Made by a program: the position numbers and the translations under genes. A stretch of DNA of 64,000 bases, taken from the sequence record OZ335963.1; one strand, written 5' to 3'. Shown piece by piece: positions 44,004 to 51,039 of this stretch. Under the pieces are notes generated by a model. That model did no database searches and was not told the origin of the DNA. It saw only the letters and a list, made by a program, of their open reading frames with translations. The first letter of the stretch is position 1; each line of letters starts with the position of its first letter. The DNA comes from a phage.

Positions 44004-44506
44004 TTAAAAATATTTTTTAAAACTCATCATAACTTTATCATCAACATCATTATCAATCTGTGCTACAAGATAAGATGAAAGTTCTACTTCTTGTGGCGCG
44101 GATTGAACATTATCAGAATTAAGGTATTCACGAATCCAAGGATACGGATGTTTAACCGGAGCATCGGTAATTGGGCATGGAAGACCACACTGTTTCATAC
44201 GAGATACAGTCAAGTAATCAATAAAGTTCCACATGCTATTTGTATTTAATCCAGGAACATCGCCATCTTTAAATAAATGAACTGCCCAGTCTTTTTCTTG
44301 ACGGTTAACTTCCATGAAAATATCAACTGCTTCTTGTTCACACTCTTGGGCGATTTTAACCCATTCATCACCATCAGTGCCAAGTTGAAGTTGACGAATA
44401 ATATATTGGGTGCCTTTAAGGTGAAGCTGCTCATCACGTGCAATAAACTTCATAATCTTGGCATTACCTTCCATGATTTCCATGTTCTTATGGAAGTTGA
44501 AAGTAC
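44004..44506 (-). CDS. nrdB: Ribonucleotide reductase small subunit NrdB, exon 2
   Basis: In-frame continuation ...TFNFHKNMEIMEGNAKIM...; splice acceptor after intronic G at 44507 inferred from frame and R2 family conservation. Confidence 0.8.
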
Positions 44507-45597
44507 CGTTATGTTCGATTGAGCTCGCTAATTCTCAACCCGTTCTCTTATGAACTGCTACATATTACTATGCAGACCAGACTATATCACAATCCCAGAG
44601 GGATTCTCCCCATTTCGAGTCGCTTGACCCTACGTCCGAAGACTAGTCGTTGAACCTTGCTTTGCAATTGTCGCCGTGCCATCGTTTATATGTTGATGGT
44701 GATAAATCTTTCTTATCACAATATGGACAATTCAATTGAATTCTATTTGGATTTAATTTACATCTGTCATTATGTTTTAGATAAAATCCAGGACCTTTAC
44801 CAATGTGACCGCAGAAATCACATGTGATTTCTTTTTGTGCAGGATGGGTCCCGTTCTTAACCATTTCTAATGTTTTTGCTGATGTTCTTTTCTTATGGTC
44901 TTCTGACAAGAAATGATGTGAACCGTCATTTACCCGTTTTGATTGAGTTTCTGACTGCATTTTACCACCGCAAAATACATGAGTACCTTCTTTTATAGCT
45001 GCAATATTGCGTTCTTTAACTTTTGCAATATGCTCAGCTTGTTGAAAATTATGTATACCTAATGCAACTCTATTTAAATTAGATTTACGCTGTATTTCAC
45101 CGTCTAAAAGATGAAATGTACCATTTTCTATCTTAGATTTAATAGAGGCAATATTTTTAGCTCGTACTTCAGGGATATTAAAAATCTGGATTTCTCTAGA
45201 TTTTGCGGCTTTAGAAGCTAATTCAGAAATTTCTTCAGGAGAATATTTCATTCTAAGCTTTATAGCATGACAAGCCTGGTAATCTTTTTGAGCTAAATGT
45301 ATATCATAATGTTCCTGTATAGAAAGGCACATCAAATTATCTAAATCATTATTTTCACGGTTACCGTCTTTATGATGGATTTCGTATGTTCTTCCATCAG
45401 AATCTTTAGGTATAGGTCCGTTAGCATCTATCCAAATTTTTCTATAGTTCAATTGTGCATCCTCTTAAAAGTATAATCATATTTATATTATACTAATTAA
45501 AGGTGCAAGCAAAACCTTGGCTGCTAGTTTTCCTATAAAGGACTTTCCAGCAATTAAAGGAGTTTTCGATAAACGTTACCGTTTAAAGGCGCATTTT
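44507..45597 (-). mobile_element. Group I self-splicing intron in nrdB carrying a homing endonuclease ORF
   Basis: nrdB reading frame interrupted for about 1.09 kb; exon 1 ends on U, intron starts AAAAUGCGCC (GCGC can pair with exon GCGU as P1), intron ends on G; HNH ORF inside. Confidence 0.75.
44643..45452 (-). CDS. Intron-encoded HNH-type homing endonuclease (I-TevIII-like)
   Basis: 269-aa ORF inside the nrdB intron; apparent TTG start 7 nt after AAGAGGA; zinc-finger-like CDFCGH...CPYCDKK. Confidence 0.85.
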   Translation of the reverse strand: MNYRKIWIDANGPIPKDSDGRTYEIHHKDGNRENNDLDNLMCLSIQEHYDIHLAQKDYQACHAIKLRMKYSPEEISELASKAAKSREIQIFNIPEVRAKNIASIKSKIENGTFHLLDGEIQRKSNLNRVALGIHNFQQAEHIAKVKERNIAAIKEGTHVFCGGKMQSETQSKRVNDGSHHFLSEDHKKRTSAKTLEMVKNGTHPAQKEITCDFCGHIGKGPGFYLKHNDRCKLNPNRIQLNCPYCDKKDLSPSTYKRWHGDNCKARFND

Positions 45598-46273
45598 ACG
45601 CAAAAGATACATAAAAACGAATAGCTTCTAAGGCATTAATGACATGCAGGCAGAGATAAAGAGATTTCATTAGTGCTCGTTTAGCTTCGGCTTCTTGTTT
45701 AATAGCTCGATTTAAACGAAAATCAGCATCAGGAGATTCTTTAGCTAGTTCTACAAATTCTTTAGCATTTTCCCATTCACGGGTCTTCTTAAGAACATCA
45801 TCGTAATAGCGACCAATGGACTCAGCACGTTTCATAATATCTTCATCTAATACAATCTCATCAAATACCTTTGATGGATCAGTATAAAGATTTCGCATGA
45901 TATGAGTATATGAACGACTGTGAATAGTTTCACTAAAAGTCCATGTAGCAACCCATGTATCAAGACTTGGATCTGAAATTAATGACATAAGTACAGCAGA
46001 CGGTGCACGACCCTGAATGCTATCTAGAAGTGATTGATACTTCAGGTTATTAGTAAAAATATCTTGCTGATACTGAGGAAGCTTATTAAATTGTGCAGCA
46101 TCCATCATCAAGTTTACTTCTTCAGGACGCCAGAAAAATGACAACTGCTTTTCGGTTAAATCTTCAAAAACTTTATGACGTTGAATATCATAACGCGCAA
46201 TACCAAGACCTGAACCGAAGAACATGGGTTCTTTTAAAACATCAACTGGATTTGTATTAAAAACTGTGCTCAT
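45598..46273 (-). CDS. nrdB: Ribonucleotide reductase small subunit NrdB, exon 1
   Basis: 225 in-frame codons ending ...EAIRFYVSFA, then intron; exon ends on a U that can pair with intronic GCGC guide. Confidence 0.85.
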
Positions 46274-46324
46274 AAATTTTCCGCTTAGTTAATAGATAGT
46301 GACTCGTCCGTGAGTCAAATTATA

Positions 46325-49146: not shown

Positions 49147-50006
49147 TTACACCGCCATCTTTCCTTTAATTGGCGGGTGAGATACATAGTTGTTAAGAAC
49201 AAAATTATGCGGCTTTGCGAATTGACTCAACCAAAATACCTGCGATTCTGTGTCCCATTCATCAAATTCATCTGGAAATTTTAATTGTAATTCGCATAAA
49301 TCCATAGGTTCACGACGCAAAATTTCTTTACATTGTTCTACGTGATTCATATAGATATGAGTATTACCACCAGAAAATATCAAATCTCCTGGAATAAGAT
49401 TACACATCTTAGCTACAATATGAACTAACGTAGCATATGATGCAATATTAAATGGAAGACCGAGGAAAACATCTACCGAACGTTGATACCACTGCAGATC
49501 CAAATAGCCATTACGCACATTAAACTGATAGAACATATGACAAGGTGGTAATGCCATTTGCTTAAGTTCTGCCGGATTCCATGCTGAAACAATTTGACGT
49601 CTATCATTTGGCAGTTTTTTAATACGTTCAACAACTTCTATAATTTGGTCTACGCCACCAAAATCGCGCCACTGTTTTCCATAAATTGGACCAAGTTCAC
49701 CGCTATGGTATCCTAAATCTTTTGCTTGTTTTTCGTAATTTTCATCCCAGACTGTTTTGCCTTGAATTAATGAATCATGTTGAATTAATCGCAAATCATT
49801 GACATTTGTGCTTCCCGATAAAAACCATATTAGCTCAGCAATGCAAGCTTTCCAGGCAAGCTTCTTAGTCGTTACTGCAGGAAAACCTTTAGTTAAATCC
49901 CAGCGTAATTTAGTACCGAACAAAGCAATTGTTCCTGTGCCTGTTCGGTCATCGGTTTCATAACCATTTTCAAAAATGTCTTTAATTAAATCCTGGTATT
50001 GTTTCA

Positions 50007-50007
<1 letters not shown>
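49147..50007 (-). CDS. td: Thymidylate synthase, uninterrupted (no intron)
   Basis: 286 aa from ATG 50007 (MKQYQDLIKDIFENGYETDDRTGTGT...); contiguous through active-site region PPCHMFYQFNV...DVFLGLPFNIASYA. Confidence 0.93.

Positions 50008-51039
<1,032 letters not shown>

Follow-up and report, generated by a model that had tools for sequence, protein, structure and literature searches.

An insert divides nrdB

[quoted passage not shown] The ORF that contains exon 1 (45596 to 46273, minus strand) ceases to resemble NrdB past ...EAIRFYVSFA, and the resemblance is regained at 44506. The insert begins with AAAATGCGCC and ends with ...AACATAACG; the last base of exon 1 is T (45598), and the first base of exon 2 is G (44506). 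Removal of the insert gives the junction ...TTTGCGT/GTACTTTC..., at which T and GT join to form a Cys codon (TGT) and the product reads ...RFYVSFACTFNFHKNMEIMEGNAK.... The spliced NrdB is 392 amino acids long and aligns without gaps with the uninterrupted 392-amino-acid NrdB of phage T2 (363/392 residues identical). A break in nrdB, an insert of about 1.09 kb, and a Cys codon at the junction had all been predicted from the sequence, and excision to this gap-free protein agrees with each of them. The position of the junction is unambiguous, since the flanking bases differ at each boundary.

The original prediction also proposed a P1 helix between GCGC in the insert and GCGU in the exon. This pairing was found at intron positions 6 to 9, with U.G at the splice site. 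The GCGT/AAA...GCGC arrangement is present in diverged nrdB introns (L129 to L131) as well, and intronless T2 has GCAT at the corresponding site.

Table 1 Coordinates of the nrdB exons, intron, and intron-borne features in the window
Feature	Position	Strand	Description	Basis
nrdB exon 1	45598..46273	-	676 nt, ends ...TTTGCGT	ORF list, gap-free alignment with T2 NrdB
Group I (IA-type) intron, predicted	44507..45597	-	1091 nt; first base A 45597, omega-G 44507	Excision, RB3/e11/2 comparison, fold
P1	45589..45601	-	Exon GCGU 45601-45598 with internal guide GCGC (intron 6-9, 45592-45589), U.G at 5' splice site
Ribozyme 5' half	45509..45597	-	Intron 1-89: guide, P2, P3 5' strand, P4, P5, P6 5' strand, P6a 5' strand
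Hairpin burying the Shine-Dalgarno sequence in read-through nrdB transcripts	45456..45507	-	Intron 91-142
T4 late-promoter consensus	45480..45487	-	TATAAATA, intron 111-118
Shine-Dalgarno AAGAGGA	45460..45466	-	TTG 7 nt downstream
TTG initiation codon	45450..45452	-		Upstream stop, GenBank annotation, homologous ATG
I-TevIII ORF	44643..45452	-	269 codons, TTG start, TAG stop; in P6a loop	RB3 identity, HNH_3, zinc fingers
Ribozyme 3' half	44507..44665	-	Intron 933-1091: P6a', P6', P7, P7.1, P7.2, P3', P8, P9, omega-G
P9.1, P9.2 (tentative)	In ribozyme 3' half (intron 933-1091)	-
P2	Intron 13-18/23-28		GUAA loop
P3	Intron 36-41/987-992
P4	Intron 46-51/71-76
P5	Intron 56-59/64-67
P6	Intron 77-78/943-944
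P6a	Intron 83-89/933-939
P7	Intron 950-954/1014-1018
P7.1	Intron 955-957/962-964
P7.2	Intron 968-972/977-981
P8	Intron 993-998/1002-1007
P9	Intron 1023-1029/1034-1040		GUAA loop
Terminal G	Intron 1091
nrdB exon 2	44004..44506	-	503 nt including stop codon	ORF list, T2 alignment

The insert has a group I core split by the ORF

Helices were mapped by hand onto the insert, with intron position 1 corresponding to window position 45597. All of the assigned pairs in this fold are canonical (57/57), and the core includes an R element (GGUUCAACGACUA) and an S element (GAUAUAGUCU). For P6a, a bulged register (88-93/933-939) was replaced by 83-89/933-939, which forms 7 pairs without a break, agrees with the relatives, and is preserved under the T4 substitution G938A.

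Failure of a group I covariance model to match the insert had been put forward as evidence that would count against an intron. A scan of the whole window with RF00028 at the gathering threshold (50 bits) gave no match. A permissive scan gave a partial match at 44558 to 44798 (33.9 bits, E = 1.3e-6), in which the 3' half of the intron was aligned correctly and the 5' half was mis-threaded into the ORF. The model therefore did miss its threshold, but it also misses the T4-type intron of phage RB59 (35.7 bits) and scores the NP4 intron alike (36.6 bits), with the same kind of partial alignment. Since the T4 nrdB intron is described as self-splicing (PMC2790892), such a test is uninformative for an intron whose core is interrupted by a long ORF, and the sub-threshold score was rejected as evidence against an intron. 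The low score is attributed to the 843-nt ORF-bearing loop in P6a and not to a missing core.

A scan of viral contigs with the R-element sequence GGTTCAACGACTAG recovered many introns in which a short hairpin replaces the ORF, and 14 of these score 68 to 104 bits over the full RF00028 model. Twelve of the ORF-less introns (72 to 104 bits) were aligned with the ORF-deleted window, RB59, and NP4 introns, giving 15 sequences. In this alignment 88% of the paired cells can pair, versus 35 to 42% when the partners are slid by 1 to 3 columns, a difference inflated by the derivation of the fold from the window sequence; double changes in the other sequences are independent of that derivation. They occur at 40 of the 57 pairs, and the observed values were reached in 0/500 shuffles. 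Across the 15 sequences P4 is 100% and P5 97% paired, and compensatory changes occur. For P3 the value is 96%, with covariation at 5/6 pairs, and for P6a it is 98%, with covariation at 6/7. On this comparative evidence P3 and P6a, predicted helices that could form only if the two halves flanking the ORF meet, are both well supported. The T4 intron differs from that of the window by further compensatory changes, A-U to G-C and G.U to G-C in P9 and U.G to U-A in P6a. Self-splicing has been reported for both the T4 and RB3 nrdB introns (PMC2790892, PMC1865063). From its identity to the RB3 intron at 1090/1091 positions, we infer that the window intron would likewise undergo guanosine-initiated self-splicing.

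The intron ORF encodes full-length I-TevIII

A full-length I-TevIII ORF had been predicted in the nrdB intron, and comparison with I-TevIII of phage RB3 confirmed it. The two ORFs are equal in length and location and encode proteins identical at 268/269 residues, with the HNH motif and the zinc fingers intact. HNH_3 (PF13392) matches residues 4 to 48 (E = 6e-13), and the two CX2CX12-13HX3C zinc fingers lie at residues 211 to 231 and 242 to 263; a two-zinc-finger motif has been defined for I-TevIII (PMC1865063). An alignment of 120 homologues (31 to 93% identity) shows no variation at His26 or His27. A Pfam match to FlgM at residues 74 to 114 (26.2 bits, cutoff 25) was regarded as spurious. A search of solved structures with the ORF gave no meaningful match, returning only glucosamine-6-phosphate deaminase (E = 0.29), and a protein-guided scan of viral contigs found a single near-identical locus.

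The sole difference between the two proteins is at residue 23, which is Tyr in the window and Asp in RB3 and lies three residues before the invariant catalytic His-His. Among the 120 homologues this position is Tyr in 109 and Phe in 7, and Asp in none. When alleles were counted with 41-base probes centered on the diagnostic positions, the full-length Tyr23 allele was found in 67 records and Asp23 in 9, the latter confined to RB3 and the near-clones RB5, 6, 7, 9, and 10. The RB3 enzyme has been described as extremely labile, with very low specific activity and weak binding to DNA (PMC1865063; Robbins et al. 2007), and it is this enzyme, with its private Asp23, that lies behind all of the published biochemistry. 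The residue distribution raises the possibility, which we consider rather unlikely, that Tyr23 is the functional wild type of I-TevIII and that the Asp23 enzyme of RB3 is atypical. In that case, the view that I-TevIII is feeble by nature would be an artifact of the allele studied. The Tyr23/Asp23 difference is only mildly new, and it offers a testable possible reason for the poor behavior of the enzyme studied in 2007.

I-TevIII is predicted to start at TTG

The ORF had been described as lacking an in-frame ATG, which is wrong: ATG occurs at codons 41, 68, 165, and 197. None lies upstream of the HNH motif, and the first falls within it. The companion claim, a TTG start 7 nt past AAGAGGA, held up. 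In the frame of the ORF, a TAA precedes the TTG by 4 codons, and none of the codons in between (GAG GAT GCA CAA) can serve for initiation. The same TTG is given as the start of the coding sequence in X59078 (RB3, 1991) and KM606994 (RB3 genome, 2014). In the alignment of 120 homologues, residue 3 is the first of a conserved Y-R-K-I-[YW] motif; given this motif and His26/His27, a start at codon 41 would cost the protein its active site.

The contigs that carry three distant homologues were located, and each of the three is flanked by the two halves of an nrdB gene. In L130 and L131 the called exon 1 gene ends with ...TTTGCGT/AAA, the same junction as in the window, and L129 has the TTTGCGT/AAA junction sequence upstream of its ORF. 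The internal guide GCGC is within a few bases of the junction in L130 and L129. These two ORFs, 75% and 55% identical to that of the window, begin ATG-AAC-TAT (75%) and ATG-AAT-TAC (55%) versus TTG-AAC-TAT in the window, and each has its own Shine-Dalgarno sequence. Homology thus fixes the N terminus and indicates that TTG is the true start of the ORF. Since both homologues have ATG at the same codon, the comparison also marks TTG as specific to the T4/RB3/S16 lineage; the design as such does not call for it. Among the papers searched, none names both I-TevIII and UUG.

A late promoter lies in a hairpin that pairs with the ribosome-binding site

The late-promoter consensus TATAAATA sits within a hairpin in which the Shine-Dalgarno sequence is paired. 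The predicted dG is -14.9 kcal/mol (z = -3.2) for read-through RNA, versus -0.7 for an RNA that starts after the late promoter. A hairpin that pairs with the ribosome-binding site is kept in NP4, L130, L129, and L131, with differing sequences (dG, -14 to -21; z, -2.9 to -5.6). Late promoters and hairpins that sequester the ribosome-binding site control I-TevI, II, and III (PMC2988022, PMC3014915), and the role of the late promoter has been described for the T4 intron ORFs (PMC2988022). An operator for I-TevIII that resembles the homing site and overlaps the late promoter has been proposed (PMC2988022); the corresponding sequence in the window is identical to the homing site at 17/25 positions, a match no better than shuffled sequence gives (p about 0.14), and was not counted as a part of the element.

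The TAG stop codon of the ORF occupies intron positions 953 to 955, within the 5' strand of P7, and the last codons overlap P6a', P6', J6/7, and P7. Because of this overlap, translation and ribozyme folding should be mutually exclusive on one RNA, as has been argued for I-TevI (PMC3014915).

The intact intron is the usual form among phages that carry it

A search with 1.4 kb around the insert matched 690 phage records, about 85 of them over at least 80% of the length. The best matches were e11/2 (98.8%) and RB3 (98.3%), and the RB3 ORF is annotated as I-TevIII. Among these 690 records, the majority have nrdB without an intron. The junction of the T4 deletion is present in 16 records (T4 strains, T4T, RB55, and RB59) versus the approximately 85 full-length matches. 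These probe and match counts indicate that the intact intron is the usual natural form and that the T4 deletion is the exception.

Intron content within the window is mosaic, as had been proposed, with an intron in nrdB and none in td. The thymidylate synthase gene is a single uninterrupted ORF (49147 to 50019, minus strand), and comparison with T4 showed that the 1016-nt T4 td intron is absent from it. No mobE gene was found in the 64-kb window.

Proposed working of the element and alternative explanations

The interval from 44507 to 45597 on the minus strand is almost certainly an RB3-type, full-length nrdB group I intron of T4-like phages, a well-known mobile self-splicing element, with an intact I-TevIII homing endonuclease gene in its P6a loop. 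The following working draws on the sequence and the family literature. Early and middle nrdB transcripts would read through the intron, and the RNA would fold into a P1-P9 core in which P3 and P6/P6a join the halves that flank the ORF. The intron would then splice itself out after the P1 U.G and the terminal G, giving the mRNA for the 392-amino-acid NrdB. [quoted passage not shown] Late in infection, the TATAAATA promoter inside the hairpin would produce a shorter RNA whose Shine-Dalgarno sequence is unpaired, and I-TevIII would be translated from it, starting at TTG. By homology with RB3, the protein would combine an N-terminal HNH nuclease with a two-zinc-finger domain for DNA binding and dimerization.

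The exclusivity of translation and folding is the rationale for regarding TTG as a selected attenuator, in which weak initiation would limit both ribosome traffic through the ribozyme-overlapping ORF and the dose of nuclease. This is a possible reading that we lean against. All of the examined copies of the T4, RB3, and S16/NP4 types have TTG, the stop codon of the ORF lies inside P7, and expression is already damped by the late promoter and hairpin. In addition, PMC3014915, citing Gibb and Edgell 2010, reports that translation of I-TevI interferes with splicing of the td intron. However, the 75%- and 55%-identical homologues at the nrdB site use ATG with a good Shine-Dalgarno sequence while keeping the hairpin, so the arrangement does not depend on a weak codon. 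The TTG copies are also 88 to 100% identical to one another, such that shared ancestry explains the conservation, and TTG is retained even in the dead T4 copy; conservation of the codon therefore cannot separate selection from ancestry.

It is very improbable that the element is decaying, having lost the activity of its ribozyme or its endonuclease as in T4, and persists only by hitchhiking. Homing elements do cycle through loss of activity, and the T4 copy is defunct and carried along by mobE (PMC2790892). In the window, however, the ORF is full length without a frameshift or stop, every conserved N-terminal position examined has the family-consensus residue (including Tyr23), the core pairs are all canonical, and nrdB could not be expressed without splicing. 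The absence of mobE from the window also makes the hitchhiking route of T4 unavailable.

A translation start elsewhere, at codon 41 (ATG) or codon 6 (ATT), or through coupling to a mini-ORF of 3 codons (ATG-CAC-AAT-TGA) that adjoins the Shine-Dalgarno sequence and shares bases with the TTG, is the least probable explanation: the four in-frame ATG codons and the presence of the mini-ORF in both the window and NP4 speak for it, but a start at codon 41 would lose most of the HNH motif together with the invariant histidines, the Pfam match and the YRKI motif begin at residues 4 and 3, the ATG of the mini-ORF has no spacer to the Shine-Dalgarno sequence, the mini-ORF is missing in L130 and L129, and the published numbering (C-terminal domain at 194 to 269, total of 269 residues) fits the TTG (PMC1865063).

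An intact RB3-type intron with a TTG-initiated I-TevIII gene remains the preferred reading. In practice, the locus matters for genome annotation. Many deposited T4-like genomes annotate it as two nrdB fragments and a "hypothetical protein," the intron escapes the standard covariance model because its core is interrupted by the ORF, and the endonuclease would be cut short or overlooked by gene callers that do not accept TTG.

Comparison with the nrdB introns of RB3 and T4 and with other group I introns

[quoted passage not shown] An nrdB intron with I-TevIII is already known, the RB3 form since 1991 (GenBank X59078), with characterization in 2007 (PMC1865063), and the biology proposed here adds nothing new for the classic RB3 and T4 nrdB introns. 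Alignment with these two introns, which had been suggested as a check, placed the RB3 intron 1 base from that of the window and the T4 type apart from it by the lack of intron positions 210 to 700. The RB3 intron (X59078, KM606994) is in the same gene at the same insertion site, has the same length (1091 nt in the 2014 record), and is identical at 1090/1091 positions; its TTG, Shine-Dalgarno sequence, late promoter, and hairpin are all as in the window. The RB3 genome record gives nrdB as a two-piece join with I-TevIII in the gap. RB3 differs from the window in having mobE between nrdA and nrdB and in a few exon polymorphisms adjoining the insertion site. The intron of phage e11/2 (vB_EcoM_112) is one synonymous base apart from that of the window, and its protein is identical.

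The T4-type intron (598 nt in RB59) is the window sequence minus positions 210 to 700 (491 nt) plus two single-base indels. As predicted, the T4 intron ORF is truncated where that of the window is intact: the deletion of codons 22 to 185 removes the whole HNH motif. The insertion site and ribozyme core of T4 are as in the window, with a few pairing-preserving substitutions, and the region of the promoter, hairpin, Shine-Dalgarno sequence, and TTG is identical. The annotated 97-amino-acid "defective" ORF of T4 opens with an ATG that is out of frame and then runs on into the frame of the zinc fingers.

The T4 td intron with I-TevI shares the design of the window intron, that is, a group IA intron in a nucleotide-metabolism gene with a looped-out ORF and a late promoter in a hairpin over the ribosome-binding site (PMC2988022, PMC3014915), but it carries an endonuclease of a different family (GIY-YIG) and resides in a different host gene. 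The ORF-less metagenomic group I introns (L008, L011, L015, L037, L063, and others) share AAUUGCUGGAAA..., GGUUCAACGACUAG, and GAUAUAGUCU with the window intron, and their helices P2 to P9 are as in the window, with covariation. They have a short P6 hairpin in contrast with the 843-nt ORF loop of the window, which accounts for their RF00028 scores of 68 to 104 bits versus 33.9 bits.

Relatives of the nrdB intron and their annotation

Homologues of I-TevIII, the HNH homing endonuclease encoded in the nrdB intron, were found in diverged nrdB introns of three metagenomic contigs, L129, L130, and L131 (see table). The called exon 1 gene of both L130 and L131 ends with ...TTTGCGT/AAA, a junction identical to that of the window, and L129 carries the same junction sequence. 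All three homologues begin with ATG, and each has its own RBS-sequestering hairpin. The nrdB intron family extends beyond the T4/RB3 pair. A viral metagenomic contig, L037, contains four separate matches to the Rfam group I intron model RF00028 (83-91 bits) inside ~1.8 kb.

Among the phage records matching the region around the intron, many deposited T4-like genomes have nrdB annotated as two separate fragments, with the intron ORF labelled "hypothetical protein" or "homing endonuclease" and the locus lacking any intron or join feature. These records amount to a systematic annotation gap at the nrdB intron locus of deposited T4-like genomes.

A mini-ORF of three codons, ATG-CAC-AAT-TGA, directly adjoins the I-TevIII Shine-Dalgarno sequence; the TGA of this mini-ORF overlaps the TTG start codon (AAUUGA). 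It is also present in the related intron copy of NP4 but is absent from L130 and L129, whose homologues have an ATG start. The mini-ORF may have no relevance, or it may serve as a decoy or in coupling.

Features of the nrdB locus and of related sequences
Sequence	Position	Feature
Window	46274-46324	nrdA stop to nrdB start
Window	45598-45600	Exon 1 end
Window	45449-45460	Mini-ORF
Window	45384-45386	I-TevIII codon 23 (variable base, 45386)
Window	45379-45388 (intron 210-219)	Direct repeat GAAGAACATA, T4-type deletion end point
Window	~45111-45233	Pfam FlgM match, I-TevIII residues 74-114
Window	44889-44898 (intron 700-709)	Direct repeat GAAGACCATA, T4-type deletion end point
Window	~44600 (intron ~998)	P8 CCC run
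L129	331-1146	I-TevIII homologue, 55% identity, in diverged nrdB intron
L130	1164-1973	I-TevIII homologue, 75% identity, in diverged nrdB intron
L131	1501-2349	I-TevIII homologue, 45% identity, in diverged nrdB intron
L037	2318-4084	Four RF00028 matches

Residue 23 and the linker of I-TevIII

While the biochemically characterized enzyme of RB3 has Asp at residue 23, codon 23 of the window ORF encodes Tyr. The Tyr23 allele occurs in 67 phage records and the Asp23 allele in 9, RB3 and its near-clones only. Of 120 homologues, 109 have Tyr here, 7 have Phe, and none has Asp; the position lies three residues N-terminal of His26-His27, invariant in the same set.

The Pfam family FlgM (anti-sigma-28 factor) matched the linker that joins the HNH domain to the DNA-binding domain, at 26.2 bits (cutoff, 25); this family is also precomputed for the closest database homologue. 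The match is probably spurious.

Exon 1 end, the T4-type deletion, and the early RB3 entry

Exon 1 ends in GCG-T in every intron-bearing allele seen (window, RB3, e11/2, RB59, NP4, and L129 to L131), whereas the corresponding sequence in intronless T2 (L004) is GCA-T. Opposite the internal guide GCGC, the T2 A would introduce a mismatch into P1. The difference between alleles fits either selection for pairing in P1 or co-conversion.

The end points of the 491-nt T4-type deletion fall in an imperfect 10-nt direct repeat, which suggests that the T4 allele arose through slippage or illegitimate recombination.

The 1991 RB3 entry (X59078; L127) gives an intron of 1,090 nt, compared with 1,091 nt in the 2014 RB3 genome and the window. 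The entry has one C fewer in the P8 CCC run, probably a sequencing compression.

The nrdA-nrdB gap

Only 51 nt separate nrdA from nrdB in the window, and the free-standing HNH endonuclease gene mobE is missing from this gap; therefore, trans-homing driven by mobE, as described for T4, cannot take place in this genome. Phage e11/2 likewise has a gap without mobE, while RB3 and T4 both carry the gene there.
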